A DNA stretch of 20,000 nucleotides from an uncultured virus (IMG/VR IMGVR_UViG_3300048836_000416) (taxonomy: Duplodnaviria; Heunggongvirae; Uroviricota; Caudoviricetes). Below, piece by piece: positions 801-20,000 of this stretch (the stretch's first letter is position 1; each line of letters opens with the position of its first letter). The notes beneath the pieces are model-generated. The model was not told the origin of the DNA and ran no database searches. It saw only the letters and a program-made list of their open reading frames with translations. The stretch is from the IMG/VR virus record IMGVR_UViG_3300048836_000416. One strand, written 5' to 3'. Made by a program: the position numbers and the translations under genes.

Positions 801-1277
801 ATGAAACACCTGCTTTGCTTGGCCCTGACCTTGTTCCTGGCCGTCACGCTTTCCGCCCAAAGCGGTTCGGCGTTTTACCACAACCATACGGACACGAATG
901 ATACGCTCGGCGCTAATTCTACGTTCACGTATGACTTCAACACCCTGACCACTTTGTTCGGCGTATCGGCCGGCTCCCGCGACATCACGGATACGTGGTC
1001 GTATTCCGTCACCGTAGAGGCCGACTCGCTGAGTGGCGCCGCTGCCGACAGTTCGACGGTCTTTCTCCAGGTTTCCAACTCCCCGGTCACTGACGCTAAC
1101 CCGGTTTGGGTAAGTATCGAAGATGATGAAATCGACGGAACCACTACCCAAGTTTTCCATTATACTGGAGACATCGTGGAGCCGCGAATGCGCCTGCTCA
1201 TTTACTCCAAGTCCGGCACTAAAGCCATTGCGCTCCGCTCGTACATTACCGTAAAGCGGAAGTATAAAACCCGGTAA
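801..1277 (+). CDS. Secreted (Sec signal peptide) beta-rich protein, 158 aa
   Basis: MKHLLCLALTLFLAVTLSA|QSG has a basic N-region, a hydrophobic H-region, a small residue at -1 and Gln at +1. The mature part is S/T/D-rich with alternating beta-strand patterns (VFLQVSNS...WVSI...RMRLLI). Confidence 0.85.
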   Translation: MKHLLCLALTLFLAVTLSAQSGSAFYHNHTDTNDTLGANSTFTYDFNTLTTLFGVSAGSRDITDTWSYSVTVEADSLSGAAADSSTVFLQVSNSPVTDANPVWVSIEDDEIDGTTTQVFHYTGDIVEPRMRLLIYSKSGTKAIALRSYITVKRKYKTR

Positions 1278-1577: not shown

Positions 1578-3287
1578 ATGAATAAAGAAGTATTAAACTA
1601 CGACGCAAAGCGTCTTGATGCTGTTACCGATATCGCCTCCCTTGTTGCCACCACCGCAGGCCCCTATGGGCAGAACGTGGAATTTATTGGCGGCGAATCC
1701 CCGTTGATGATCCGTGACGGATACAAGGTGCTCCAGAAATTCTCTCCGGCCGACGACCTTATGCTTGGCCTCAAATTCAGAATGCAGGAAGCAGCCTACC
1801 GGACTGTCCGTGCTGCCGGTGACGGCTCCACTACCACCACCATCTTAATGAGGTGGATTTACGAAAATGCGATTGACTGGATTCACGAACAAAAGGCAGA
1901 AGAGAATAACTCCCCGTTCCCTGTCTCTCGCCGGGACATCGCCAATGGTATCCGCCATGCCGGTAAAATCTGCGTGGAAGCGCTGGAGAACGCCGACAAG
2001 ATCGACATTACGACCGACAAAGGCAAGAGCCTCCTCCGCATGGTCGCCACCCTGGCCGGCTCCAACGACGCGCAGATCGGTAACGCCATCGCCGAAATTA
2101 TCATCGCTATCGGGAAAGACGGTTACGTAATGACCGAGTACGACCCCAACATTAAGGAGATGTCGTATGAGATCAAAAGCGGATACACAATGCCGTATGG
2201 CCTGATCCACAATACCATGCTTCCTCGCGGGCGGAAAGACATCACGATCCAGGACGCCTATGTTGCCGTCTGCAAAGACCTGATCAGCACGGTTGATACT
2301 CTCCGGCCAATAATTATGGCCTGGAAGGAATACTGTCAGAGGGAACAATCCATCTTCCCCTTGGTGCTGATTGTCCCCGGTATCGACGCCGACGCCATGG
2401 CTACTATTCTGAATCGGAGTATGACCGAGGACCGCAAAGGTTGGGAGAATCCAATCTGGTCCCTGCTTCCAGGCATACGCCTGCCCTGGTTCTGCGTAAA
2501 AGTCCAAGCGGTAAATGAAGTGTGGGAGGATATCGAGGCCATTACAGGGGCCAAAGTATTCTCCTCCCGGGAAAACCGGAGCGTGAAATACTTCAAACCA
2601 GACTCCGGGATCGTGATGCCTTCCATCGTTTTGTCGATGGAGCAATCTGTCCTTCACATCAACACCGAAGCGCTGGAAACCTCCGGCATCGTGAGCCGAC
2701 TGAAAGAATCCCTGGAAGGCGCTGAGGACCGCCAGGCGCTCGAATCACGCATCGCCCGGCTTGAGGGCCGCGTTGGTGTAGTTCGTATTCCTGTCCACTC
2801 TCAGGCGAAACGCTCCTGGACCGCCGAGGTATTTGAAGATGCTTACTTGGCCGCAATATCGGCCATCGAAAAAGGAATCGTGCCCGGCGCCGGGAAGAAA
2901 CTGATCTCGCTCGGCGAGAAAGTGGGGGCTACCCGTTTCAAAGCAGTCTCGCCTTCTTATGCTGCCGGACTCGCCGCAGTAGGCGCTTCGCTGTCTAACA
3001 TCTTTCGGACCCTGCTGGAGAACGGAGGTGTGCCGGTGAATCGTATTGAAGGTATTGTTAATGTGTTGTCCCAAAAAGATGACTGGTCAACCATATCATT
3101 AAACGACTCCATGCTGTCGAACCTCTGCGGAGAAGTACCTATCCAGGCGATGCTCGAAGATGGCCGCAAGACTGGGGTCATTGACTCCGCCGCCGCTGTT
3201 TCTGCTGCTATCTCCTCTGCCTGCGAAGAGGTTGCAGACTGGGTAGAGACAAGCAAGTGTGTTGTTCCCGCTTCTTACCGGGGATAG
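1578..3287 (+). CDS. groEL: Phage-encoded GroEL/Cpn60-family chaperonin (divergent)
   Basis: Cpn60 motifs in the correct order: TTAGPYGQNV (cf. TLGPKGRNV), MIRDGYKV (cf. ITKDGVTV), AAGDGSTTTT (GDGTTT ATP loop), RIARLEGRVGVVRI, EDAYLAAISAIEKGIVPGAG, GVIDSA. No GGM tail. Confidence 0.93.
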   Translation: MNKEVLNYDAKRLDAVTDIASLVATTAGPYGQNVEFIGGESPLMIRDGYKVLQKFSPADDLMLGLKFRMQEAAYRTVRAAGDGSTTTTILMRWIYENAIDWIHEQKAEENNSPFPVSRRDIANGIRHAGKICVEALENADKIDITTDKGKSLLRMVATLAGSNDAQIGNAIAEIIIAIGKDGYVMTEYDPNIKEMSYEIKSGYTMPYGLIHNTMLPRGRKDITIQDAYVAVCKDLISTVDTLRPIIMAWKEYCQREQSIFPLVLIVPGIDADAMATILNRSMTEDRKGWENPIWSLLPGIRLPWFCVKVQAVNEVWEDIEAITGAKVFSSRENRSVKYFKPDSGIVMPSIVLSMEQSVLHINTEALETSGIVSRLKESLEGAEDRQALESRIARLEGRVGVVRIPVHSQAKRSWTAEVFEDAYLAAISAIEKGIVPGAGKKLISLGEKVGATRFKAVSPSYAAGLAAVGASLSNIFRTLLENGGVPVNRIEGIVNVLSQKDDWSTISLNDSMLSNLCGEVPIQAMLEDGRKTGVIDSAAAVSAAISSACEEVADWVETSKCVVPASYRG

Positions 3288-3328
3288 ACTCCAAGTATTC
3301 GCTCACCATTATCAAATATTTTCTAATT

Positions 3329-3553
3329 ATGGAAGAATTGACCTTTGGCCAAAAGGCGGTTGGCCGCAATTTCAATCCGTCGAACGACCCATTTGTTGAC
3401 AAAATGAAACAGCATTACGCTGACATCATTGATCAACTGAATGAACTCCGCAATCAGACGCAGAACGAGGGAGTAAGGCGTCATGCTGAGCAAGCCATCA
3501 TTATGGCAGAAGATGCTCAAATGCGAGCCGTTAAGGCTATCACCTGGAAATAA
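3329..3553 (+). CDS. Small helical-hairpin protein resembling Acb2/Tad1-family anti-defence nucleotide sponges (74 aa)
   Basis: ATG at 3329 after an AT-rich leader (the longer 3257 start overlaps groEL). Sequence FNPSNDPFVDKMKQHYADIIDQL...RRHAEQAIIMAEDAQMRAVKAITWK. The C-terminal R-x-A-x2-A-x4-E-x-A-x-M-x-A-V-K-A pattern resembles the Acb2/Tad1 hairpin. The function call is an inference. Confidence 0.6.
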   Translation: MEELTFGQKAVGRNFNPSNDPFVDKMKQHYADIIDQLNELRNQTQNEGVRRHAEQAIIMAEDAQMRAVKAITWK

Positions 3554-3562
3554 CCAGGTGTC

Positions 3563-3633
3563 GCGGATCAAAGTAGTGTGGCTCTACTCCTGTCTACTAA
3601 GCAGGCAACACGGTTCGATTCCGGATTTCCGCG
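3563..3633 (+). ncRNA. Degenerate tRNA-like element (apparent anticodon ACT)
   Basis: Acceptor-like GCGGA(3563)/TCCGC(3632). D-arm GTAG-tgtggct-CTAC. Anticodon arm CCTGT-ctACTaa-GCAGG. T-arm CGG-TTCGATT-CCG. The T-stem has only 3 bp, the acceptor stem is imperfect, U8 is absent and CCA is not encoded. Confidence 0.5.
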
Positions 3634-3646
3634 CAAAATTGTTGAA

Positions 3647-3937
3647 ATGTTCTACGCAAAAAAATCAGTACCCATGCCCGGGCGCCTGCTCGTCGAAGTC
3701 ATCCAATCGGACGGCACAGACGACACCCTCGGGATCATACTACCTCACGCGCCTGCCGATACCGTGATGGCAAGGATTGTTCGGTCGTCGGATGAAGAGA
3801 AATTTCCTACCGGTTCGGTTGTGATGTACGACCGGCTTCACGGAAAGGAAATTACGCTCCTTGACGACGCCGGTGATCCGGTGAAGTACAAGGTCATCCA
3901 AACGGTTGACATCTCATTGATCCTTTCCGATGATTAA
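3647..3937 (+). CDS. groES: GroES/Cpn10-like co-chaperonin (96 aa)
   Basis: PMPGRLLVE (cf. PLHDRVIVK), mobile-loop GIILP (cf. GIVL), ARIVRS, PTGSVVMY (cf. KVGDIVIF), KYKVIQTVDISLIL (cf. VLIMSESDILAIV). ATG at 3647; the upstream in-frame extension overlaps the tRNA-like element. Confidence 0.8.
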   Translation: MFYAKKSVPMPGRLLVEVIQSDGTDDTLGIILPHAPADTVMARIVRSSDEEKFPTGSVVMYDRLHGKEITLLDDAGDPVKYKVIQTVDISLILSDD

Positions 3938-4556
3938 GATGCCACCCAACAAGGTCCTTGTTCGCCGCCTCGGCCTACAAGACTCGTTTGAAGGCATCCA
4001 GGCTTCCGACCATGAAGACCGGGAACACTGGATGCTTTCAAATGTTGGTGTTGTAGAGGCTGTCTGCGACTCGCTACACTTCACCAGAGACGAGGTGATG
4101 TGGCTCAAGCATATTGGCCGGCCGGCGCGAGAGATTGCGGAGGCCACCAGGGCATCGTGCCTTTTCAACGCCCACGTCGAAGCGAAGGTTGGCGACTTGG
4201 TAATCTTTCGCCGGGTGAATAATGTCAACGCCGACGAGGTGTTCGAGAAAGACCGGTTGGTTGTTCCGCACGATGACTTGATTGCCCGGGTAAACCCAGA
4301 TGGGTCCTTGTATCCGCTATGTGGTAATGTGATCATCGAGGATCGCCAGGAAGCCATCACAAAAGTAATCGCCGCTGGCAAACCGCTGCTTGGGTACTTT
4401 GACTTCCTTGGATACGCCGATCCGGACGTTGACCTGGTTGGCAAAACCGTCGCCCTGAATCACCGCCAGTCGGCGCCGGTATCCGATAATGTATTCTCTG
4501 ACTTCAAACTATTGGCCTACATCAAGCGCCGCCACATCTTACTGACTGTCGAATGA
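3930..4556 (+). CDS. Tandem two-domain GroES-like (Cpn20-like) co-chaperonin (208 aa)
   Basis: Domain 1: PPNKVLVRR...GVVEAV...EAKVGDLVIFRR...LVVPHDDLIARV. Domain 2: PLCGNVIIE...TKVIAAGKP...LVGKTVAL...AYIKRRHILLTV. Overlaps groES by 8 bp. Confidence 0.65.
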   Translation: MIKMPPNKVLVRRLGLQDSFEGIQASDHEDREHWMLSNVGVVEAVCDSLHFTRDEVMWLKHIGRPAREIAEATRASCLFNAHVEAKVGDLVIFRRVNNVNADEVFEKDRLVVPHDDLIARVNPDGSLYPLCGNVIIEDRQEAITKVIAAGKPLLGYFDFLGYADPDVDLVGKTVALNHRQSAPVSDNVFSDFKLLAYIKRRHILLTVE

Positions 4557-5499: not shown

Positions 5500-5711
5500 T
5501 GCAACTATGGGACAACATAAATAAACAGTGGCTAACGATTATGTGGTTATTCCTTGACGATGACGGCAACCTATTCCATGTACGCGCAAAAGTCCCTGGC
5601 GAATCTCCTCTTGACCACGGTTGGTTCGACTTCAATGACGAGAAACTTGAGCACATCTCCATAAACGGCGCAATAAGCCACAACCCCAACATGGCGCCAA
5701 GGAATGCCTAA
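5496..5711 (+). CDS. Hypothetical protein (71 aa)
   Basis: Overlaps the upstream stop (GTGA) and the TerL start by 8 bp, filling the operon gap. Confidence 0.6.
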   Translation: MMQLWDNINKQWLTIMWLFLDDDGNLFHVRAKVPGESPLDHGWFDFNDEKLEHISINGAISHNPNMAPRNA

Positions 5712-7776
5712 ACTATATACCGCCACATATGAGACTAATCTCCGGGTCGAGAACGTAAATACCGAGATACTGATCCTGCTTCCGGATATGCCACCGGAAA
5801 GCGAGATGTATAATTACGGGCTACCCGAAGAAGATCAAGTATGGAAGGCGGTAAAAATCCCACCTGATTATCGCAGATGGCCATGGCAAAAGAAAAAGGA
5901 ATGGGCGGATGAAATGTGGCACCGCCGATGGAATGGGGAGTGGTGGCTGATCAAAGGTAAACCGGTCTACCTTACCGGGACCGCGTTTCTGTTTTTCAAC
6001 TTCTGGAAACTCAGCAAGTCGAAACTGCCTGACTTCAAGATGCAGTGCGTGTGGTGGTTCCAGGTGATGCGCCACGTCGAACTGGATATTAATGTGTTTG
6101 GCTGCATGGAGATAAAGCCTCGTCGCGCACATGCCACTGAGATGTCTCTGTGCTGGATGTGGGACACGGTGACAAAGTATCGGGACTCCAAGGGCGGGAT
6201 AATGTCAAAAGCCGATGACGAGGCAGAGAGCGCGTTTGACAGGCTTGTATTCAGCGCAATGGAGATGCACCCCATCTTCAAGCCAAAGAACACCGGCTCT
6301 GACCGGCCGCAGGCTCAGATCGAATACCAGTACCCGGCCAGGAAGATCGGAACAAGGAATGTGAACGAGGTCCACGAAGATCACGACACCCCGGCGCTCC
6401 ATTCAAAGATATGGTTTGAGCCCACCGTGGAAGGAAAGTTCGACGGCGAGAAAATGCGGGCGCTTGTGTTTGACGAACTTGGGAAGATCAAAGTATCGAA
6501 GATGAACGTCAAGTATCAGTGGGGCATTATGCGCGAATGTTTGTCATTGGACGTGATGACCAATATCATTGGCAAGGCCATCCTCCCGTCCACCATCGAG
6601 GAGATGGATGATGGCAAGTCGATTGCGATTGTTCAAGACTTCTGGGATGAATCAAACCCGAAGCGGTTGGATAAAGTAGGGAGAACTCAGTCCGGGCTGA
6701 TCAGGATGTTCCGCTCGTATTGGCAGATAGCCAAGCCTGATAAGTGGGGATACCCGGATGCAGATGATGCTCGCCGGGTCCGAAACGCCCAATTGCAGGC
6801 GCTTGAGGAAGCCGGGAAACACGAAGAAGCGGCCGACCTTCGGCGTAAATTTCCAGAGACAGTAGAAGAAGCCCTGGCGCCACCGGCCACCGAAGCCTCT
6901 ATTCCGACCGAGTTAATTGACAAGGCCAGGAAATATTTGGAAGAGGCTCCAAAGAATCTTTCTACCCGGGCGATTCAAGGGACCCTGCATTGGCAAGGCG
7001 GCGAGTTTGGCGGTAATGTAATGTGGACCCCGGACCCTAACGGCAAGTGGTTCATATCACGACACCCAGACAAGCCAAATAACCGGATCATATTACAGAA
7101 CAACAAAGCGGCCCCAGGAAACACCGGCGAGTTTGCGATGGGCGCCGACCCAATTGACTCTGTGAAGCCAAGGAAGGGCGGATCGGATGGCGCTTTTTGT
7201 GTAGGGATTATGCACGACTTTGTGCGTGACGCTGATATGCAGTTCGATGCCGACGACGTATTGCTTGACCACGGAATGTACACAGATGCTTGCGCCTGCG
7301 ACTACGCCTCCAGGCCGAAGATGCCGGAGGAGTTTTACGAGGACGCCTTGATGACTGCCATTTACTTTGGGTGCCAGATGCTTGTCGAGACAAACAAACC
7401 CGGCTTGGTGAACTGGGGATTTGAGAAAGGCTTCGGCGCGTACTTCTCTCAGAAACCGGTCAATGCCGACGTGAAGTGGATGTCTCGAATGAGAAGCGAC
7501 ACCATAGGAATCAGCGCCGTTGGGGCGACTATTGACAACTACTACCGGCATTTGAAGTCCCACGTAATTCGCCGCTGGCGGAACTACACTCACCCGAGAC
7601 TGTTGGCAGACCTAAGGAAGTTGACGCCGGATAACCGTACGGAGCGAGATTTATCTGTAGCCTGGGGATGGTGCCTGACCTTGATGTATGGCCTTGCGCT
7701 CAAGAAGAAGCGCGACCGATCCAAGCCCGATATAGGCGCCTCAAGGAAATCATTTCCGCTGTCTACGTATAAGTAG
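5704..7776 (+). CDS. terL: Terminase large subunit
   Basis: N-terminal YLTGTAFLFFNFW, Walker-A-like EIKPRRAHATEM, Walker B ALVFDELGK, coupling motif ILPST, RKFPETVEEAL, RNase-H-like nuclease motifs MGADPID, SDGAF, LVETNKPG and RDLSVAWG. Lies upstream of portal and MCP. Confidence 0.92.
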   Translation: MPKLYTATYETNLRVENVNTEILILLPDMPPESEMYNYGLPEEDQVWKAVKIPPDYRRWPWQKKKEWADEMWHRRWNGEWWLIKGKPVYLTGTAFLFFNFWKLSKSKLPDFKMQCVWWFQVMRHVELDINVFGCMEIKPRRAHATEMSLCWMWDTVTKYRDSKGGIMSKADDEAESAFDRLVFSAMEMHPIFKPKNTGSDRPQAQIEYQYPARKIGTRNVNEVHEDHDTPALHSKIWFEPTVEGKFDGEKMRALVFDELGKIKVSKMNVKYQWGIMRECLSLDVMTNIIGKAILPSTIEEMDDGKSIAIVQDFWDESNPKRLDKVGRTQSGLIRMFRSYWQIAKPDKWGYPDADDARRVRNAQLQALEEAGKHEEAADLRRKFPETVEEALAPPATEASIPTELIDKARKYLEEAPKNLSTRAIQGTLHWQGGEFGGNVMWTPDPNGKWFISRHPDKPNNRIILQNNKAAPGNTGEFAMGADPIDSVKPRKGGSDGAFCVGIMHDFVRDADMQFDADDVLLDHGMYTDACACDYASRPKMPEEFYEDALMTAIYFGCQMLVETNKPGLVNWGFEKGFGAYFSQKPVNADVKWMSRMRSDTIGISAVGATIDNYYRHLKSHVIRRWRNYTHPRLLADLRKLTPDNRTERDLSVAWGWCLTLMYGLALKKKRDRSKPDIGASRKSFPLSTYK

Positions 7777-8309: not shown

Positions 8310-10640
8310 ATGGCAGTAAAAGATTTTCTCCCACCGCAGAACTCTGCGACGCAGCCCTCGGCTATTGTGCCGGAGGTCATGGATAATGCGTGGTTTTTGC
8401 AGTGGGCAAAGTGGATGTATGGCCGGTGGAGGGGCAATGGGTGTATGGTTAATTACGATGGCCGGCCGCACAACTCGGAAGAAACAATCGAGCAATTAAG
8501 AGCCTACGGAAGAGGTCGCCAGGATGTCCGCAAGTACCGCCAGATACTTGACAAGGAAATCAAACTGGATGACAACCAGTCAGCAATGCTCCTGAATATC
8601 TCCTGGCGCCTTCCGCAAGTGTTTCCTACTTACCGGGAAAGAATCATTGACCGGTTGATGGAGATGCGGTACGAGCCGGCAGTTGTCGCCATCGACGAAC
8701 CATCCATCAAGAAAAAAGACTTGATGTATCTGCGCGACACTATCGCCGCCTCCCCTGGTGGCCGGCAGATGATCCAGAACGCAGGAATTACGCCAACCAA
8801 TATCACCGACAATGCGTTGGTGATGGACGAGATTGAACTCGAACAATACAAGGCCCTCGGCGGCTACCAGTTAGCCGCAGAAATAGCACTGTCGGAAGCC
8901 GTCATGGCGACCGTTGATTTGTGCAAATTATTCCCTTCGGTTTATCGGCAGACGCTTGAGGATTTATTCGACCTAGGCCATGCCCACATGGAGATTCGCC
9001 ATAACCCCGGCGACCGGATGCAAAGTGTAGAATACATCGACCCAGAGTATGCGGTTGTCCCGAATAGCCAGTATGATGACGGCCGGGACATTACTTGGGG
9101 CGGATACCTTCGCCCTACCACAATCCAGGCAGTACGCATGGAGAGTGGGTTTGGTGAAGCGCAAATGGCCCAGATTGCCAAGGCTTATGGCACCAGAATG
9201 GGCAACGAGAAATACGCTGGGATGGGCAATGGGTATGGCGAACGCGCTCAGTTCTCCTCTGGCGGACAGGTATGGGACCCGTTTGAGTGCATGGTATTTA
9301 CTGGGTACTTTGTAGCATCGAAAGTTGAATCCCACATTGTTGGCGTTCACGACTCCGGTTCCCGGGTGATGACGCCAGTAAAGTATGGCACCCAGATTTC
9401 CGAGCAATCAAAGAAGAAGGGCTTTTCTGTAAACAACGCTGCCATCCAGTGTGTATATAAATTCAACTGGGTCATAGGCACCGATATCGTTTACTCCTGC
9501 GGCGAAGATTCGGTTGTTACCCGCGACGGAGTTCCCGGCGCCATGAAAGCGCTTATCCCTATCGTTACATTCAGAACAAGCAAAATGTCTGTCACCGAAT
9601 CCTGCTTGGGAGTTATCGACGACATTGCTATCAATGTATTCAAGAAGCGGCACATTATTTCAAAGATGCCACCGGCGCCAAATATTCAGGTTGACCCGGC
9701 AGCGCTGGAGAATGTGACCCACCTGGGGAACATGCGCTTGATGCCGCAGGACCTTCTTGACATCTATACGGTCAGGGGCATCCTGTTTGCCACCTCTGCC
9801 AAGGACTACGACGACTCCTTCCCGGGGCAAGCGTCACCGCCGAGAGTTATTACAGAACTTCCTAATACGACACTTGACCAACTCCGGACTATTCAGATTG
9901 ATCTGGAGATGTCGATGCAGCAATTGATGGCCATCACTGGCACCAATGAGATTGCTGACGGCTTGGCGAATCCGACCAATGTAGTATCAGGAGTTGCGGA
10001 CATCGCATCGAAAGCGTCGAACCGGGCCCTGTCCTGGCTGTACACCGCGAACGAATCAATTCAGACGAACATATACACATTACTTGCCAAGCGTTACCAG
10101 GCGATAGCAAGCAAAGGCGAAATGAGTATCAAGTGGCTACCTATTGGCCTTGATACTGTTCGCGTGGTTACGCTTAACCCTGAGGTGTCATTATCTGACT
10201 TCATGGTGATGATCAAGCCCGGTATCGATGGCCTTGCCAAGCAGGCGCTTATCAACAGCGTCACGACATATAAGCAAGGTGGCCAGATATCGCCGGCCGA
10301 CGAGATGGCCGTGATCAACATGATCGCCAGGGCCCAATACAAAAAGGCCCAGTTCTACTTGAGTACGGCAGTGGCTCGGAAGATGAAGCAGGACGCGATG
10401 ATAAGCCAGGCGAACTCTCAGGCACAGGCACAGGCCCAAGGACAGGCCGGCGTCGCGGTGGAGCAAGCCAAGCAGCAGGCGGAGGCGATGCGGATCAATG
10501 GTGAGAAAGAATTATTGACCCTCGAATATCAACTCAAGAATAATTTTGCTGACCTCGATGCGGATCGGAAGATTCGGATTGCGGCTGCAACGAAAGCAAC
10601 AGATACCTTAATTCAAAATGCCACGGAAGTGGCTGCTTAA
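8310..10640 (+). CDS. Portal protein (776 aa)
   Basis: Large gene between TerL and scaffold/MCP. LRAYGRGRQDVRKYRQIL, LNISWRLPQVFP, VEYIDPEYAVVP and ITGTNEIADG resemble portals of crAss-like/Bacteroidota phages. Gln/Ala-rich C-terminal coiled coil (barrel). Confidence 0.85.
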   Translation: MAVKDFLPPQNSATQPSAIVPEVMDNAWFLQWAKWMYGRWRGNGCMVNYDGRPHNSEETIEQLRAYGRGRQDVRKYRQILDKEIKLDDNQSAMLLNISWRLPQVFPTYRERIIDRLMEMRYEPAVVAIDEPSIKKKDLMYLRDTIAASPGGRQMIQNAGITPTNITDNALVMDEIELEQYKALGGYQLAAEIALSEAVMATVDLCKLFPSVYRQTLEDLFDLGHAHMEIRHNPGDRMQSVEYIDPEYAVVPNSQYDDGRDITWGGYLRPTTIQAVRMESGFGEAQMAQIAKAYGTRMGNEKYAGMGNGYGERAQFSSGGQVWDPFECMVFTGYFVASKVESHIVGVHDSGSRVMTPVKYGTQISEQSKKKGFSVNNAAIQCVYKFNWVIGTDIVYSCGEDSVVTRDGVPGAMKALIPIVTFRTSKMSVTESCLGVIDDIAINVFKKRHIISKMPPAPNIQVDPAALENVTHLGNMRLMPQDLLDIYTVRGILFATSAKDYDDSFPGQASPPRVITELPNTTLDQLRTIQIDLEMSMQQLMAITGTNEIADGLANPTNVVSGVADIASKASNRALSWLYTANESIQTNIYTLLAKRYQAIASKGEMSIKWLPIGLDTVRVVTLNPEVSLSDFMVMIKPGIDGLAKQALINSVTTYKQGGQISPADEMAVINMIARAQYKKAQFYLSTAVARKMKQDAMISQANSQAQAQAQGQAGVAVEQAKQQAEAMRINGEKELLTLEYQLKNNFADLDADRKIRIAAATKATDTLIQNATEVAA

Positions 10641-11752: not shown

Positions 11753-13282
11753 ATGCCTTTCGCAAGTGGAGCACCGCTCCAAACCGTATTACCGGCAGCA
11801 TTGCAAGGCCACCAATTCGGAAGTGTCGGCGGCGGAGTCGCCCATGCCAACGTAGTGGAAAGCCTTTATTCTGCCTACGATCCTTATTCCATCGAACGCC
11901 TGGCGTTCGAGCGCCACGGCCGTCGCCCTGGCTTTGCCAACCTTATGGACGTACTCGGCCCCGATTTCAATCAGGGTAAAAACGCGCCCACGACGGGCCA
12001 TTACGAGCGTAACAACTGGGTAGGACAACTCGTGAATATTGGCTCCATTATCACCGCTTCTGCCGGCGCCGGCAACTCCATGGTAATCGAAGTTGGCACT
12101 GCCAACATGACGACCACTGGCGTTGAAGTATCCGGTTCCGCCCGCAAGGGTAGCAATGGCCGGGTCAATGACCTGATCCTGCTTCCTGGCGGCAAGTTGG
12201 CCCGCATTACCGTCAAAAACGTTTCCACCGATCCGCACCGGTACACCATCGTCCCCCTGGACGCTACGGTTGACCTGGATGACTATGTGACCGCCGCTGA
12301 GTCGTACAGCATCGTGACGAACGCCTGGGCGCCTGGCTCCGGTCTTCCCGAAGGTTTGTTACCTAAAACATTCAGGTATACAAACAAATTCCAGATTGTC
12401 AAAGAGGCTCTGGCCATCACCGGCACTGAACTGACGAACGAAACGTTCGTACAAGTTGCCGGCACCCAAGGCAGCGTGGTTCACATTATGGACCAAGACA
12501 TGATGGACCGCTTCGACAATTCGCGTTCCGGCGCCCTTTTGTGGGGTGAAGAAAACGACAACAACGTGGATACGACGACCATCGTTGGTTACGACGTTGA
12601 CATTTCCTGGACCGAAGGCTTTATGGCTTTCCAGGCTGGAAACTCGTACCAACTGGATTACAACCCGGCCGCGTTCACTGTGGACGAGTTCGACGAAATC
12701 GCCGCTACCCTGGAGCGTGAAAACCTGGGCACTCGCTCGGTTCTCTCCCTGCAAGGCAACCAGTACCAGTATCTCCTGCAAGCAGCCCTCGAAGACAAGT
12801 ATGACCAGTCGTTGTCGTCTACCCTGATCGCTCAGGGCATGACAGACTACAACTTGTCGCTTGACGAGTGGCAGCCCGTCATCACAAACCAGGACTGGAT
12901 CGCTTGGTTGGGCTTCCAGGGCGTTCGCCGGTCGAACTTCCTGTTCCACTTCCGGATGATGCACGAATTTGTCAGACCTGACGGAGGTGGCGCAGATGCG
13001 TACTCCTATCCGTTCGATGCCATCTACCTGCCACTCTCGAAGAGCCGTGACCGTCAAAGCGGTGTGCAGCGCACGAGCATTGGCTATGAGTGGAAACAAC
13101 TTGGCGGTTACAGCCGCAAAGCCGTGTATGGCAAAATGGATGGCGCCGGCGTTGCTGGCAGCGGCGGCTTCTCCGCCATGGCTGTGAACGAATATGATTG
13201 GCAGCGTGGTTATGCCCTCTGTGAAATAGCATTTCATGGGGCATGCCCCAATAAGATTGTCTACCACACGCAAGAGTCGTAG
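11753..13282 (+). CDS. Major capsid protein (509 aa)
   Basis: Position after the scaffold, strongly AT-rich leader (aaacctaaaatcttttaaaaat), marked codon bias and a downstream GC hairpin. Segments YTNKFQIVKEALAITGTE, ALLWGE and WTEGFM resemble crAss-like/Bacteroidota HK97-fold MCPs. Confidence 0.85.
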   Translation: MPFASGAPLQTVLPAALQGHQFGSVGGGVAHANVVESLYSAYDPYSIERLAFERHGRRPGFANLMDVLGPDFNQGKNAPTTGHYERNNWVGQLVNIGSIITASAGAGNSMVIEVGTANMTTTGVEVSGSARKGSNGRVNDLILLPGGKLARITVKNVSTDPHRYTIVPLDATVDLDDYVTAAESYSIVTNAWAPGSGLPEGLLPKTFRYTNKFQIVKEALAITGTELTNETFVQVAGTQGSVVHIMDQDMMDRFDNSRSGALLWGEENDNNVDTTTIVGYDVDISWTEGFMAFQAGNSYQLDYNPAAFTVDEFDEIAATLERENLGTRSVLSLQGNQYQYLLQAALEDKYDQSLSSTLIAQGMTDYNLSLDEWQPVITNQDWIAWLGFQGVRRSNFLFHFRMMHEFVRPDGGGADAYSYPFDAIYLPLSKSRDRQSGVQRTSIGYEWKQLGGYSRKAVYGKMDGAGVAGSGGFSAMAVNEYDWQRGYALCEIAFHGACPNKIVYHTQES

Positions 13283-14648: not shown

Positions 14649-15620
14649 ATGGCAAGGGAAGTCACATTCCAATTTCAGACCACCAAGGGCAATGCAAATG
14701 ATGGCAACATCGTGGTGTCGCTGTTAAATTCCGACGCCTTGGCCGGAACGCCTTATGACTTTTACATTGGTATCACATCGCCGAGTGGGGAAGTAATCAA
14801 GGCAATTGATTCCGGAACTCCTGACGCCACGCTTGACGGCGGAGCAGATGCGACTGACACGTTCAATGTTGCAATCCCATTGGATTCAGATGGTGCGTAT
14901 CTTGGCGGAACGTATGTGTTTACGGTTCGCCGCGACGATGGCGCCTCTGATGACACGACCGTTGAAAAGGAATATCTGTATGTGGTTCACAACGCTGTTG
15001 ATCACTTCACAGGAACACCTTCCCTTGCCGTTACTTTCAATTGTAACACAGGAGTAATCCTGGCCACAGACACTACTGATTATGACGCGGCCGGAATTAC
15101 AATGGACGAGCGCGAGATTGAAATCACTCCACCCTCTATTGATCCGCAAGGGGCAGACGACACTACTGCTGCCTCGCTATCGCTGACGGTGGCGTACACG
15201 TATGTAACCTATGGGGTGCGAATGCTCTCTGAGTTCTCTACCGAGATAGGCCCGCTTGGCAACGACATAAGCGCCTACCTGGCCGGAAGTGTGGAGTTGT
15301 ATGACGAGGTGGAGATTACTTGCGAAACGGGCGGAATATGTGGAAGCCTTGGCTGCCTGAGCGATGAACTTACGAAGGTTTATAATCAAGCATGTGCCGC
15401 TGGCGGATACCCCAACCTCCCAAGCGTGACCAAGGACCGAATAGTTTGGTCAATGATGAACCTCACAATGGCAAAAATGCAATTCGATTGCGGAAATACC
15501 ACGTTATCGCAAACATACTTGACCCGGGCGAAAGAAGCAATTAACTGTGGCTGCGGATGCGCGGATGAATCTGATCCGACACCGGCACCTTACACACCTC
15601 CATACATCGTAAATGATTAG
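14649..15620 (+). CDS. Acidic structural protein with beta-rich N-part and Cys-rich C-terminal domain (323 aa)
   Basis: D/T-rich beta patterns, then CETGGICGSLGCL...C...C...CGCGC. Coupled to its neighbours. Confidence 0.7.
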   Translation: MAREVTFQFQTTKGNANDGNIVVSLLNSDALAGTPYDFYIGITSPSGEVIKAIDSGTPDATLDGGADATDTFNVAIPLDSDGAYLGGTYVFTVRRDDGASDDTTVEKEYLYVVHNAVDHFTGTPSLAVTFNCNTGVILATDTTDYDAAGITMDEREIEITPPSIDPQGADDTTAASLSLTVAYTYVTYGVRMLSEFSTEIGPLGNDISAYLAGSVELYDEVEITCETGGICGSLGCLSDELTKVYNQACAAGGYPNLPSVTKDRIVWSMMNLTMAKMQFDCGNTTLSQTYLTRAKEAINCGCGCADESDPTPAPYTPPYIVND

Positions 15621-16302
15621 CACCAACGAAGTATATCTTGATTGCCGGAAACTCCTTGGAAAGGACAAGGCCGGCTACTTCTCCAGCGACGAGTTCAACC
15701 GGTTCTCAAAATCGGCTGAGCAAATGCTATGGCGCTTCTACGTCAAGCACTTTGAGGAGCATGGCGCCATCGCCGATGCGATGCGCGTATTCAATGATAT
15801 CGCTGTGCTGTCACTTGATTCAAACAAACGGTTTACACTGCCAAGCGATTTTGGCCGGCGCAACATACTCTGGTGGAAGAAGATGAAAACCGTACAAGGT
15901 GCAGAGCCTACGGTGACACGAACCAAGATTGCATACCTCGAAAAAGAAGAGTTACAGGATACGCTTGACTCCGCCGTTCGCGGGCCCAACCTTACCAAAA
16001 ACCGGCTGTATTATTCATTCGTCGGTGGCAAGGCTCAAGTTTGGCCCGAAATTGGTGGACCGGTAGAGATGGATTATATCCGGAACCCGACGTATGGGGT
16101 TCGTGGTTATACCGTCAACGTAACGACACTCGAAGAAGACCTTGACTCCGGCGCCACAACCGATTACGAATGGCCGGAGAATGAACGACCAAACCTTATT
16201 GACCTTATCCTGCTCCAATATGGGCAGGTTTTACGCGAAACAAATGTCATTCAATTCGCTTTAGCCCAACAAGGCGAGGCGAAAAACCACAAAATGTTAT
16301 GA
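15613..16302 (+). CDS. Putative head-tail adaptor/tail ring protein 1 (229 aa)
   Basis: The N-terminus VYLDCRKLLGKDKAGYFSSDEFNRF...AEQML, LPSDF, AQVWP...MDYIRNP and YEWPE...LIDLIL match the pattern of tail tubular/ring proteins in Bacteroidota podoviruses. Confidence 0.65.
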   Translation: MISTNEVYLDCRKLLGKDKAGYFSSDEFNRFSKSAEQMLWRFYVKHFEEHGAIADAMRVFNDIAVLSLDSNKRFTLPSDFGRRNILWWKKMKTVQGAEPTVTRTKIAYLEKEELQDTLDSAVRGPNLTKNRLYYSFVGGKAQVWPEIGGPVEMDYIRNPTYGVRGYTVNVTTLEEDLDSGATTDYEWPENERPNLIDLILLQYGQVLRETNVIQFALAQQGEAKNHKML

Positions 16303-16808
16303 TTAATATTCCTTCTTTAGTCGCCGGCCTTGTTGCCCGCTTTCTGGACGCCCTGAAATTAAAATCGCAACGCACCTGGGCTATCGTTGGCGCCCTGGTT
16401 GTGACGATTGAAACGGTGTTGCTGTCTCGGGTCCTGCCCTTCGCGGACCAAATTCCGGTCATTGTAGTCGAAACGGTTGTGGCCATTGCGGCCATCTTCC
16501 TGAACTCGTCTTCTTTCACCCTGGCTACCTCGCAGGTGCCTACGAGCGGAGAGACGGTTGGCGACTTCATTAACCGGCAACTGGCCATCGCTATCGAAAA
16601 ATTCAAGGCTGGCTCATTGACTGCATTCACTGCCATCCAGGCGCTATTCGTAGGCTTCAAGTTCTACATCATATCCGATCCGACCCTGACTTGGCCGGAT
16701 AGTGTGATTAATGTAGCACTCTCGATTGCAATGCTGTTCCTTACTCCTAAGACCAAGCCGGTATTAGCAAAACTCGGCTTCATTAAAGCACAAGAACCTA
16801 TTGTATAA
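16299..16808 (+). CDS. Membrane protein with about four TM segments made of two similar halves (holin-like candidate, 169 aa)
   Basis: Half 1: LDALKLKSQRTWAIVGALVV...VVETVVAIAAIFLNSSS. Half 2: IEKFKAGSLTAFTAIQALFV...VINVALSIAMLFLTPKT. Confidence 0.6.
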   Translation: MINIPSLVAGLVARFLDALKLKSQRTWAIVGALVVTIETVLLSRVLPFADQIPVIVVETVVAIAAIFLNSSSFTLATSQVPTSGETVGDFINRQLAIAIEKFKAGSLTAFTAIQALFVGFKFYIISDPTLTWPDSVINVALSIAMLFLTPKTKPVLAKLGFIKAQEPIV

Positions 16809-17464
16809 TGACAAAGGGAGAAGCGGTTGACGTAATATACCTCCATGTGAATGGAGGTAAAGCATCCTCGGATAACAACATCAAGAGGGACGAGATCGCC
16901 GTGTATTTCCCAACGGCGCTCGGTGTCGCAATCAAGGGGCATATCTTTGAATTAAAGCAGATGGCAATGGCCGAGAAAAACTCTGGCGCCTTGCTTTATG
17001 AGAACTCCCTGCCGGAAGGGTTTTACACCACTTTCGAGGGAACCCCTGTGAACGACACCGAGCGCATGGTTTATAAATTGGTTCTGCCAAAGCTTATCGC
17101 CCTGCCGTATGGATGGGCAGTAAGAAACCCCAGGGCAAAAAAGAATCCTGGCGCCGACTTTATGCGGCTGCCAAACTCTTCGATTACCTCGGCCTTTGAA
17201 TCAGTATTCGCCGGCGTGTATTCGTACTGGACCGAAGATGCAGAGTCAGAGACTACTTTGTTCTTGAACAACCTGCCGGCGCCAATCTGCCCAATGCTCG
17301 TTTCGATCATCAAAGACCCGAGCGACATTGAAGATGACGACAAAATTGATGCGCCGGATGACGTGATTAATGGCGCTATCCGTATCGCAACCGAATATTT
17401 CCGCTCAACATCAAACGCCTCACGTCGTCACGACGACAAGGGCACAAAAGAAGGTGAGTCCTAA
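16808..17464 (+). CDS. Putative tail ring/adaptor protein 2 (218 aa)
   Basis: TAATG-coupled. N-terminal helix-GG-helix (YLHVNGGKASSDNNIKRDEI), LPKLIALP and C-terminal IDAPDDVINGAI are consistent with ring-protein paralogs. Confidence 0.55.
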   Translation: MTKGEAVDVIYLHVNGGKASSDNNIKRDEIAVYFPTALGVAIKGHIFELKQMAMAEKNSGALLYENSLPEGFYTTFEGTPVNDTERMVYKLVLPKLIALPYGWAVRNPRAKKNPGADFMRLPNSSITSAFESVFAGVYSYWTEDAESETTLFLNNLPAPICPMLVSIIKDPSDIEDDDKIDAPDDVINGAIRIATEYFRSTSNASRRHDDKGTKEGES

Positions 17465-18450
17465 TGAATGATCGTTTCACTTCCCCGGTAAGCATTGCGA
17501 AGCAGATGTGTGTCCTGAATGGCGACACCTCTTTCTCGCACCTGGCGCGCGTAATGGTTGCGGTCGGCCGGGCGACAACCGATGTGTATCAAGAGGCTAT
17601 CCCTTCGGTTAAGTCTGAGTTCGTACAAATTCAAGGCAACCTGACGGCTCCGATCCCAAATGGCGGCGCCCGGATATTAAAGGTTGGTATCTTGAATAAC
17701 CACGGCCAGATCATTCACCTGTATGAGGATAACCGTCTTCGCCGGTACAAGAAAAACTTTCTGGACCAACGCGCAGAAAACTGCGAAGATGATACGACTG
17801 ATATTGAAAACAGCATCATAGACAAACCAATCCCCAAAGAATACTATGATCCAGGCGAATGGTATCACGGCTGCCCGCACAACGTAGGCGACTACGGCGA
17901 GTTGTATGGCTACCGGTTCGATCCTGCCTCTATCGGCACCTGGCGGGCAAATGAAGTGGATGGAGTGATTGAATTTGGCACTGGCCCGTTCGTGCAAGAA
18001 GGTCGGTGGATTATTGTGGAGTTCAAGGACATGAGCGAAGGCCGGTTTGCTACCATTCCCTCGGAAGCGGTTGCCGCAATAATGACCAGGGCTGCATGGT
18101 GGTTAAACCCCAACCAAGGGCGGATGCAGGACTTCAAGCGCGAATATTTACAGTACCGCAAGAATATGCTCCGGCTTGATCCTCTTGAGTACCTGAGAGG
18201 CATAGGAAGCGATAAGCGGGCGCCGTATGCTACGGTATCCGGGTCAGCGTCCTCTACCACATCAACTACGGCTTCATCGTCAACTACGACGACAATTATA
18301 ACAACAGCGACATTAAATTATTACAACGACGACGCAGCGGCAATCGCCGATGGGTTGGAGCCCGGTGACGAGTATTTGCTCACCGACATTTCTTTGAACA
18401 ATTATTCCCTCCCTGGAGGGCTTCATAAAACAGTCTACGGCGGACCATGA
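17464..18450 (+). CDS. Putative tail ring/adaptor protein 3, fused through a Ser/Thr linker to a small C-terminal domain (328 aa)
   Basis: APIPNGGARILKVGIL...GVIEF...IIVEF...IPSEAVAAI fits a ring-protein pattern. It is followed by SGSASSTTSTTASSSTTTTIITT and YYNDDAAAIADGLEPGDEYLL. Confidence 0.6.
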   Translation: MNDRFTSPVSIAKQMCVLNGDTSFSHLARVMVAVGRATTDVYQEAIPSVKSEFVQIQGNLTAPIPNGGARILKVGILNNHGQIIHLYEDNRLRRYKKNFLDQRAENCEDDTTDIENSIIDKPIPKEYYDPGEWYHGCPHNVGDYGELYGYRFDPASIGTWRANEVDGVIEFGTGPFVQEGRWIIVEFKDMSEGRFATIPSEAVAAIMTRAAWWLNPNQGRMQDFKREYLQYRKNMLRLDPLEYLRGIGSDKRAPYATVSGSASSTTSTTASSSTTTTIITTATLNYYNDDAAAIADGLEPGDEYLLTDISLNNYSLPGGLHKTVYGGP

Positions 18451-20000
18451 GATATTTCCTTGCTATCGTTTTACTCCTCGGCGTATTCACCGCCTTTGCA
18501 CAAAAGAACAAATTTAAAGGCGCCGGTTTTGATTATACCAAGACGGCGCCAAATTATATCCCAGTTCGCGGAACCGAGTCGGAGATCGCTATTGACTCCC
18601 TTACCGGGAAGTGGATGCAGTATTCCTACCAATCCGCCGAATGGTGGCACCTGGGTTATTTCGTGACCGAAACCGGCACGTCAGGGTCCCCGTCATACAC
18701 CCCAAATAAAGTAAAAAGCGTCATGGCCATCAACGCCGGCGACTCTTTGTACCATTACCGCGCAGGCACCTGGCGGCTGATTGCCGGTGGCGGCGGAGGC
18801 GCAGGGATTGCCGATGGCGACAAGGGCGATGTAGATGTAACTGACGGTGGCGAAACCTGGACAATTGACACTGGGGCAATCACGATGATCAAAATTAACC
18901 AGGCTGGAGCCGCTGTTGGGCAGGTGATAAAATGGAACGGCACCGCTTGGGCGCCGGCCGATGATGAAACATCTGCAACGGGCGCTGGTGGAATATATGG
19001 TCCAAGTGACTTGGTTACATACCATCATACCGCCACGGTAGACTCCGGGCTCACTTTCTCCTCGGCAGAAGACACTGCGTACTTCAACATAATCATGGCG
19101 CCCGGCGCGTTTGGGTCTGCTGCATATTTCAACTCAGACTCTATCCGTCTTCGCCGGTATGACGTAGGGGGATCGAATGAGGTGATTCTTAATTCAGACG
19201 GCATTCTTTTAAAAACAACCACCCCTGACCGCGTAACTATTCAAGGCACCGATGCCAGGTCTGCCGCCGATTACCGGGCCACATATTCCGCTCGTAGTTT
19301 TATTGACAAGCAATACGGCGACGATTTCTACCTCCAGGAGGTAGACAGTCTCCGGGTTTCAAACGACACGCTTTACATCTCCCTGGCCCGGGACTCCGTG
19401 CCAGAGAAGTTTGTAGTGCTGCCGGCCAGCGATGATACCTCTGGGTATAATTTGGATTTCCGGGTTTCAAACGACACGCTCTACATCGAAGATGCCGATG
19501 GCGCATTGTTTGTTGACCTGGAGCCGTATAAAGATAACACGGACACCTCGGGGTATAACTTGGGCGCCAGGATATCGGGAGACACTTTGTATATCCGAGA
19601 TGGTGATGGTGAGGTATCCGTTGCCTTGCCCGCCGACGCCGATGGCCAAACACTTTCAATCGATAGCGTATCATTGGTGAGTGGCGAGCGCTTTCAGATT
19701 ACGATCTCAGGCGGCAATTCTGTTTACTTTGATGTACCGGCTGATACCGACAATCAGACATTGGACACTTTCGAGATCGTCTCTAATGTCCTTAGAGCCT
19801 CTTTAACTGACGATGGCGTTCCATTTAAGTCGGTGAGCCTGGCTCCTTATCTTGACAATACCGACGCGCAAACACTTTCGGTTGACTCTACGGACATAGG
19901 CGGGATCATTGAACGTTTTGAGGTTTCTATCTCGAACGGAAACTCAGTCTACATTGACGTTCCTCAAGTGTCCGGGTCCGGGGCCGGGCAGAACAATGTC
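18447..20000 (+). CDS. Signal-peptide-bearing tail-fibre/adhesin-like repeat protein, N-terminal 518 aa (runs off the window; absent from the ORF track)
   Basis: The ATG overlaps the previous stop (ATGA). Manual translation is open to the window end: MRYFLAIVLLLGVFTAFA|QKNKFKG...GGGGGAGIADGDKGDVDVTDGGETWTID...GQVIKWNGTAWAPADD...RVSNDTLYI...DNTDAQTLSV...ISNGNSVYIDVP. Confidence 0.88.
   Translation, partial: MRYFLAIVLLLGVFTAFAQKNKFKGAGFDYTKTAPNYIPVRGTESEIAIDSLTGKWMQYSYQSAEWWHLGYFVTETGTSGSPSYTPNKVKSVMAINAGDSLYHYRAGTWRLIAGGGGGAGIADGDKGDVDVTDGGETWTIDTGAITMIKINQAGAAVGQVIKWNGTAWAPADDETSATGAGGIYGPSDLVTYHHTATVDSGLTFSSAEDTAYFNIIMAPGAFGSAAYFNSDSIRLRRYDVGGSNEVILNSDGILLKTTTPDRVTIQGTDARSAADYRATYSARSFIDKQYGDDFYLQEVDSLRVSNDTLYISLARDSVPEKFVVLPASDDTSGYNLDFRVSNDTLYIEDADGALFVDLEPYKDNTDTSGYNLGARISGDTLYIRDGDGEVSVALPADADGQTLSIDSVSLVSGERFQITISGGNSVYFDVPADTDNQTLDTFEIVSNVLRASLTDDGVPFKSVSLAPYLDNTDAQTLSVDSTDIGGIIERFEVSISNGNSVYIDVPQVSGSGAGQNNV
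19351..19630 (+). repeat. 108-bp (36-aa) tandem intragenic repeat, about 2.5-3 copies
   Basis: tccgggtttcaaacgacacgct is identical at 19351-19372 and 19459-19480. gatacctctgggtataatttgg (19434) matches gacacctcggggtataacttgg (19542). Both offsets are 108 bp. Confidence 0.85.

Follow-up and report, generated by a model that had tools for sequence, protein, structure and literature searches.

A leader-bearing fibre gene of a crAss-like phage points to a probably Sec-exported virion fibre and to a candidate dock encoded just upstream

Tailed phages are taught to assemble all of their parts in the cytoplasm. An open reading frame (ORF) at the end of a 20,000-nucleotide stretch of the uncultured virus IMGVR_UViG_3300048836_000416 (IMG/VR; Caudoviricetes), the whole stretch being called the window in the following, raises the question of how a fibre that starts with a signal peptide could become part of such a particle. 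The ORF (P0001; 18447..20000, plus strand) starts with ATG, encodes 518 amino acids (aa), is open at its 3' end and continues beyond the window. Judged by its sequence and surroundings, the gene is best explained as the long receptor-binding fibre or tailspike of a crAss-like phage, and we consider it fairly probable that its product is a virion fibre which is exported via the Sec pathway, probably glycosylated, and joined to the particle at lysis. New here is a conserved module of about 42 residues on the gene just upstream, a candidate for a cytoplasm-made dock of the exported fibre (for coordinates, see Table 1).

The initial annotation had described this ORF as translationally coupled to ring-protein genes and as combining fibre-type modules with a signal peptide followed by Gln. 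The ORF and its coupling were found as described, its ATG overlapping the TGA of the preceding gene (ATGA), while a ring protein as the product of this preceding gene is suggested by position and size, with no family match. Modules and leader were both recovered by sequence pattern. The N-terminus reads MRYFLAIVLLLGVFTAFA followed by QKNKF, i.e., a basic start, a hydrophobic core and A-F-A without Cys, with Gln at position +1, and the fibre-type motifs comprise a Gly run, DGDKGDV..WTID, and GQVIKWNGTAWAPADD. Judged by pattern, a hydropathy heuristic and conservation, the N-terminus shows the arrangement of Bacteroidota substrates of signal peptidase I (SPI), namely n-, h- and c-regions, small residues at -3 and -1, no lipobox Cys and Gln at +1. 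This Gln after the cleavage site of Bacteroidota Sec/SPI substrates is described as the Q-rule in PMC5837995. No further in-frame ATG, GTG or TTG was detected within the leader or the first residues beyond.

A search of representatives with the ORF resulted in 1573 proteins at E<=0.001, many of them via shared repeats. The best relatives, P0002-P0004, comprise 2347-3057 aa at 73-75% identity, and by comparison with them the window ORF is the first fifth of a mosaic fibre of 2,300-3,100 residues. All three have a common start and then diverge block by block; P0003 tracks the window to about residue 474 and continues with a beta-helix/pectate-lyase-like block, pectate-lyase-like blocks were also identified in P0004, and four other relatives revealed a C-terminal K1-lyase_C domain (PF24146, Pfam). 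Since a constant start is combined with swapped tailspike cassettes, this architecture points to a receptor-binding fibre or tailspike, and the gene occupies a tail module and joins a conserved N-terminal part to exchangeable receptor-binding or depolymerase domains.

Of the 150 matches listed, about 36 begin at the N-terminus, and the 13 short ones that were fetched all carried a leader and Gln (13/13). Every aligned row has Gln at +1, although the leaders vary in sequence. The leader is followed by a domain of about 95 residues (N-domain), and every ORF read at an N-domain locus harbored leader and Gln. In four loci (L004, L007, L010, L011), fibre-like proteins that have only the internal modules in common, and no N-domain, carried no leader, and the fibre of L008 revealed a leader with an N-terminus different from the N-domain. 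On these comparisons, the window fibre is a protein that works like a tail fibre or tailspike, yet, by its leader and predicted export, does not conform to the leaderless, cytoplasm-folded type. An AlphaFold2 model of the N-domain reached a predicted local distance difference test (pLDDT) score of 82.8. Its fold search gave a best Z of 3.0 (root-mean-square deviation 2.8, 42 aligned residues) within tied weak rows, among them N-terminal parts of tailspikes and the trimerisation domain of collagen XV; there was no BFVD match at E<=0.001 and no credible PDB sequence match by profile.

The gene preceding the fibre encodes a leaderless protein with 13 relatives of 323-334 aa, one of them 99% identical, and with no match in Pfam, PHROG, NCBIfam or PDB; its family is not detectably related to the ring-type protein of ORF 15613. 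Its C-terminal module is conserved in 14/14 rows of the family, while the linker preceding it varies, and was modelled with a pLDDT of 91.7. The module matches the ends of unrelated proteins in other phages, in an alignment that spans phage types. Thus far, 22 distinct loci could be compared, and in 20 of them this module forms the end of the gene that immediately precedes the fibre, irrespective of the type of protein to which it is attached (the window, nine siphovirus loci, L012/L015, L021, L022, L006, and six loci from genome profile searches). In the siphovirus loci it is located on the terminator and usually also on the hub, being doubled in L003, L017 and L024, and in L012/L015 on a gene of 71 aa; at least five different upstream proteins act as carriers (ring-type, hub, tail terminator, tube-like and tiny protein). 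The module was also found upstream in six of eight places left out of model building. Within five records searched whole it occurred only beside the fibre gene, and five records with fibres lacking the N-domain (two of them at least 90% complete) did not reveal it.

Prediction of a complex of three N-domains and three modules scored 0.25 and 0.00 against a mark of 0.32, which weighs neither for nor against binding. A fold search with the module gave a best Z of 2.8 in tied weak rows, so that neither a shared nor a new fold is indicated for module or N-domain; BFVD held no match at E<=0.001 and the PDB no credible sequence match (profile), and the two domains are not detectably related to each other. 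Among cultured phages, the 71-aa module protein gave only rows of E>=1, and no match was found to the fibre ORF, the capsid protein or the N-domain.

For glycosylation, the initial annotation had counted 11 D-[ST]-[ALVIMT] sequons in the ORF, compared to one in the major capsid protein and three in the terminase large subunit (TerL), and these counts were reproduced. The sequons are located at residues 50, 99, 209, 231, 300, 307, 316, 343, 379, 406 and 480. Shuffling the residues 5000 times gave an expectation of 3.63 (p=0.0004), so the number goes beyond D/S/T composition alone, and none of the other 21 window ORFs tested was enriched (best p=0.10). The general O-glycosylation of Bacteroidota is, according to PMC12871550, motif-driven, acts on noncytoplasmic proteins and occupies D-[ST]-hydrophobic sites nearly fully; the window fibre carries such motifs in a predicted noncytoplasmic protein. 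Because of this and the Q-rule, modification of the fibre is likely once it is exported. The substrates described share with the fibre the Gln after the cleavage site and the D-[ST]-hydrophobic motifs (PMC5837995, PMC12871550); they are host proteins, and the words "phage" and "Saprospir" do not occur in the text of PMC12871550.

Taken in order, the proposed pathway starts from a protein in which leader, N-domain, mosaic shaft and variable tailspike or lectin-like tips can be read directly from the sequence. Since a leader is present on the fibre, it probably does not mature in the cytoplasm, the compartment in which such viruses are assembled. Sec export and cleavage by SPI, with pyroglutamate formed at Gln19 according to the Q-rule, would very likely follow. 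Once outside, the periplasmic O-glycosylation system of the host would probably modify the D-[ST]-x motifs, as deduced from host biology. The fibre would then trimerise, wait in the periplasm and, as seems likely, be added to completed particles at lysis, once the inner membrane has been opened by the holin; a stay in the periplasm until then is suggested because no outer-membrane secretion domain was detected. Finally, and at best with an even chance given the preceding steps, the N-domain might bind the ~42-residue module on the flexible tail of a cytoplasm-built virion protein encoded just upstream, which would be the ring-type protein here and a hub, tail terminator, tube-like or tiny protein elsewhere. 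As the module travels across proteins yet stays beside the fibre gene, a role as dock is the most economical account, and the pair of N-domain and module would fit one exported fibre onto very different virion architectures. We regard the widest form of this proposal as rather doubtful, namely that Lewinellaceae/Saprospiraceae phages assemble their virions across a membrane by means of a portable coupling of two parts, with a secreted, pyroglutamate-capped and glycosylated fibre captured at lysis by a tag of ~42 residues on any suitable cytoplasm-built virion protein, and with the same pair in crAss-like, siphovirus, lambda/Mu-like and apparently tailless virions.

Parts of this pathway have counterparts in known systems. 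Inovirus pIII is, as proposed for the window fibre, a Sec-exported receptor-binding protein of the virion, but inoviruses have no tail and assemble in the membrane. The P22 tailspike, which is added to finished heads and is able to bind preformed particles even outside the cell, resembles the proposed route of the fibre in this respect, but it is leaderless and folds in the cytoplasm. A cultured Bacteroidota phage, Cellulophaga phage phi18:3 (Pachyviridae, KC821620), harbors three consecutive genes (gp085, gp086, gp087) with Sec-type leaders and Gln at +1 that are annotated as "structural protein" from tandem mass spectrometry (MS/MS) proteomics; therefore, leader-bearing proteins are on record in a particle preparation of a Bacteroidota phage. 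With 547-785 aa they are shorter than the 2,300-3,100 of the window fibre family, and the GenBank record is silent on leaders. PMC10769870 describes MAT (mosaic adhesive trimer) proteins of Bdellovibrio bacteriovorus that are similar in layout, with signal peptide, conserved beta-rich N-domain, mosaic phage-like trimeric fibre and varied tips. The MAT proteins, whose N-domain has ~130 aa, are chromosomal and located on the cell surface, 13/21 with an S74 chaperone, whereas the window fibre belongs to a virion operon; S74 was not found in its relatives (0/19, Pfam), although MAT proteins also include members without S74. For phiCrAss001, PMC10172136 describes the same crAss-like order of TerL, portal, capsid, ring-type genes and fibre, with fibres docking on the tail barrel region; there, they dock on the hub proteins gp38/gp39, and "signal peptide" does not occur in that text. 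Neither the ring family nor the N-domain gave a sequence match to phiCrAss001 structures. No paper on tailed phages with exported or glycosylated fibres turned up in the literature searched, with most subscription journals and supplements lying outside the search.

Several observations weigh against the reading of an exported, glycosylated fibre captured by the module. Export, cleavage, glycosylation and the presence of the fibre in the virion are all deductions and not direct observations. The phi18:3 proteins have no sequence similarity to the fibre ORF, and the phi18:3 genome has no upstream module. Five of the 11 sequons are repeat copies (three of S-[NG]-D-T-L-Y-I and two of another repeat), and with repeats collapsed eight sites remain, with a Poisson tail of about 0.03 by hand calculation. 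Sequon density, 21 per 1000 aa in the window piece, drops in raw counts to 4-8 in five IMG/VR relatives with the N-domain (L001, L002, L003, L006) and to 0.7 in the leader-bearing fibre of L008, and lies at 0-8 in four leaderless fibre-like proteins. By alignment and N-domain model, sequons 50 and 99 lie at conserved positions and may be structural turns. As density varies among relatives, selection for glycosylation is a weaker case than export, and, as the counts stand, dense glycosylation is a property of the shaft repeats of the window branch and not a family rule. Of the proposed export for glycosylation, export is supported by a leader and Gln conserved in all relatives read, and selection for dense glycosylation is not so supported for the family; in the homologues compared, the signal peptide is conserved, and a high sequon density is, in raw counts, not shared throughout. 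As to the module, it is absent upstream at G060:C197 and at the weak match G010:C183:3655, and the independent cases number about seven, as a single siphovirus group accounts for nine of the 20 positives. Short forms of it are common as phage C-termini, with at least 120 viral loci in a pattern scan; in the first 10 new loci the shorter form was C-terminal in 10/10, and 0/10 had a leader-bearing ORF of at least 55 aa within 500 bases downstream. In L006, the module-bearing upstream protein (four copies) has a leader itself, and in P0033 and P0035 the exported fibre itself ends in the module, so the module is not always cytoplasmic. N-domain relatives also occur in elements that we read as tailless (G290, G063), where export could suit a membrane-containing particle.

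Since short forms are common in other phages, the link between the two parts runs one way: across the loci compared, the module can be predicted from the N-domain but not the N-domain from the module, and it is the long-loop form that goes with exported fibres. This leaves room for an exported virion fibre that is joined otherwise, via membrane-associated assembly or a downstream leader-bearing adaptor or chaperone, in which case the module would be no more than a C-terminal cap for trimerisation in general, moving along with the gene cassette. Given export, modification and joining at lysis, this route is about as probable as docking. It would account for a module that is widespread and C-terminal in ten of ten unrelated phage loci, and a leader-bearing gene of ~210-235 aa does follow the fibre in L001, L003, L006, L012, L014 and L022. 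Less easily explained by it are a module that is fused to five or more upstream proteins and yet remains adjacent to the fibre gene, its restriction to the fibre gene in the five whole records, and its conservation beyond that of the linker in all 14 ring proteins. The gene following the fibre, with leader and Gln and no known family, is in itself a candidate periplasmic chaperone or adaptor.

A less probable alternative is an exported accessory protein outside the virion, acting as a periplasmic or surface decoy, a superinfection blocker or an adhesin that serves the infected cell or lysogen. Bacteria do export phage-like fibres with signal peptide and conserved N-domain, as PMC10769870 describes for Bdellovibrio MAT proteins, several fibre relatives are found in prophages or integrated elements, and the fibre is followed by small genes with leaders that match no known family. 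In the siphovirus loci, which encode tape measure, major tail protein and terminator, the fibre relative is located between the genes for tape measure, hub and tail terminator on one side and probable lysis genes on the other; in those read, the tail module has a single fibre slot, which this relative occupies, and the gene is translationally coupled to virion genes, which speaks against an accessory role. All places read adjoin phage-like or element-like genes, and the leader-bearing phi18:3 proteins are annotated as virion proteins. Display on the host surface, which the initial annotation had offered as an option, found no support: no S74 domain, C-terminal sorting domain of the type IX secretion system (T9SS) or autotransporter domain was detected in 19 proteins by Pfam or 22 by NCBIfam, full-length relatives included, the window fibre's own C-terminus lying outside the window.

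It is very unlikely that the leader is unused for export, being vestigial or a cytoplasmic membrane tether, with a fibre built in the cytoplasm and sequons that are Asp turns of beta-hairpins. In its favour, D-[ST] is placed at predicted hairpin turns, and densities of 4-8 sequons per 1000 aa occur even in fibre-like proteins without a leader; yet the leader has diverged freely in sequence but preserved its length, its hydrophobic core, the small residues at -3/-1 and the Gln at +1, and no alternative start lies near it. The least credible explanation is an ordinary host adhesin gene beyond the phage boundary, for which count the end of the window within the gene, with the far flank outside view, and shaft repeats that we take to resemble those of Bacteroidota surface proteins, and against which stand the ATGA coupling to a virion-operon gene, a GC content of 0.52 similar to that of the neighbouring genes, the lack of the N-domain in 400 other Bacteroidota genomes and phage neighbours at nearly every locus.

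Returning to the proposed exported virion fibre, its family could be traced with two kinds of scans. An exact motif scan resulted in two places among 185,579 genomes, both adjoining phage genes and one of them in a metagenome-assembled genome (MAG) of Lewinellaceae. The N-domain profile matched 6/301 genomes of the family of this MAG and 0/400 other Bacteroidota genomes, and the window phage therefore probably has its host in the Lewinellaceae/Saprospiraceae group of Bacteroidota. Contig collections were scanned with degenerate patterns, which catch only part of the family. Besides the siphoviruses, N-domain loci were identified in a phage with a fused protease-capsid protein and lambda-type portal and in phages with other portals or terminases (L021, G102). 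L021 is a contig with phage genes and a fibre cassette in a bin labelled uncultured Coxiellaceae and is probably misbinned. Integrated elements that look tailless (L040, i.e., G290:C2:494000-512000, as well as L038, L042 and L035) carry the N-domain, mostly with the upstream module, together with a small P-loop ATPase, small membrane proteins, an endolysin in L042 and no capsid match; G290 has two related copies. In L043 (9157-15459, minus strand), the 2100-aa relative P0155 shows a second, internal leader with Gln at about residue 387, an arrangement that would fit a fusion of two exported genes or the loss of a stop. L006 and L015 are part of one IMG/VR record of 87.5 kb with two phage modules, each with a pair of module and fibre; the two pairs have a C-terminal part in common, and the record is possibly a chimeric assembly.

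The window itself displays a Crassvirales-like virion operon, with crAss-type TerL, portal and capsid in order, based on PHROG matches and the source labels of relatives. The 99% identical relative of the upstream protein carries the source label "Crassvirales sp.", as does P0003 among the fibre relatives; the longest contig has 74,622 bases and encodes DAL04211.1. No relative of the window capsid or ring protein was found in the viral contigs. With this operon, the ATGA coupling and the phage neighbours, the fibre gene is well supported as a phage gene, an ordinary host adhesin being very unlikely.

Table 1. Features of the window and, in the last row, of other loci (handles as in the text)
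Feature	Coordinates	Strand	Basis
Second gene with leader and Gln (MKHLLCLALTLFLAVTLSA followed by Q); small beta-sandwich protein	801..1277	+	phage-only clusters
Terminase large subunit	5704..7776	+	phrog_6681, E 4e-37
Portal protein	8310..10640	+	phrog_6547, E 5e-25
Probable major capsid protein	11753..13282	+	phrog_13704 "virion structural protein", E 3e-11; capsid label suggested by position
Virion structural protein, putatively ring-type	15613..16302	+	phrog_14543, E 2e-7
Protein of 328 aa without leader, probable tail ring protein, translationally coupled to the fibre gene	17464..18450	+	position and size
C-terminal module of ~45 residues, YxDDxAAxAxGLxxGxxY...NxYxLPxGxxK, preceded by a Ser/Thr linker that varies; candidate dock of the exported fibre	18313..18447	+
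Sec/SPI-type leader of 18 residues (MR, hydrophobic core, A-F-A), then Gln	18447..18500	+	pattern; Gln +1 in 16/16 aligned rows
N-domain of ~95 residues, two beta-hairpin units of ~44 residues; candidate virion-binding end; sequons 50 and 99	18501..18785	+
Fibre modules: Gly run, DGDKGD..WTID, GQVIKWNGTAWAP	18783..18980	+	common to leaderless phage fibres L004, L007, L010, L011
Asp/Ser/Thr-rich shaft repeats (SNDTLYI and DxDxQTLS types); 7/11 sequons	19326..20000	+
Gene of 210-235 aa with leader and Gln after the fibre	L001 15146-15799; L003 14634-15266; L006 15593-16225; L012 755-1387; L014 7-648; L022 7851-8558

Some further genes of the window were observed alongside. The nearest Atlas clusters of ORF 801-1277 are 98-100% viral and without names, which makes its product a candidate exported capsid decoration; a relative is present in L006 (38%), and by eye L022 has a similar-looking leader-bearing gene after its probable capsid gene. 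ORF 1578-3287 encodes a GroEL-like chaperonin according to its family match and is followed by ORFs 3578-3937 and 3930-4556, which look GroES-like by eye, without a family match. ORF 3257-3553 weakly matches an Acb2/Tad1 hairpin domain (PF24729, 25 bits, cut-off 27) and may encode a sponge protein against CBASS or Thoeris. ORF 16299-16808 (169 aa, several hydrophobic segments, without family match) lies among the ring-type genes, in what may be a holin-like position.

If confirmed as proposed, a conserved Sec-exported receptor-binding fibre would shift the final assembly step of these phages to the periplasm or the lysate, and its virions would carry host glycans, with possible effects on stability, host range or the recognition of self and non-self. 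With the upstream module, it becomes possible to ask directly, using two small domains (95 and 45 residues), how an exported part reaches the particle; if these bind each other, they would represent a natural tag-and-catcher pair. Annotation would change as well, in that genes with leaders in Bacteroidota phages deserve more than to be set aside as extras of host origin.

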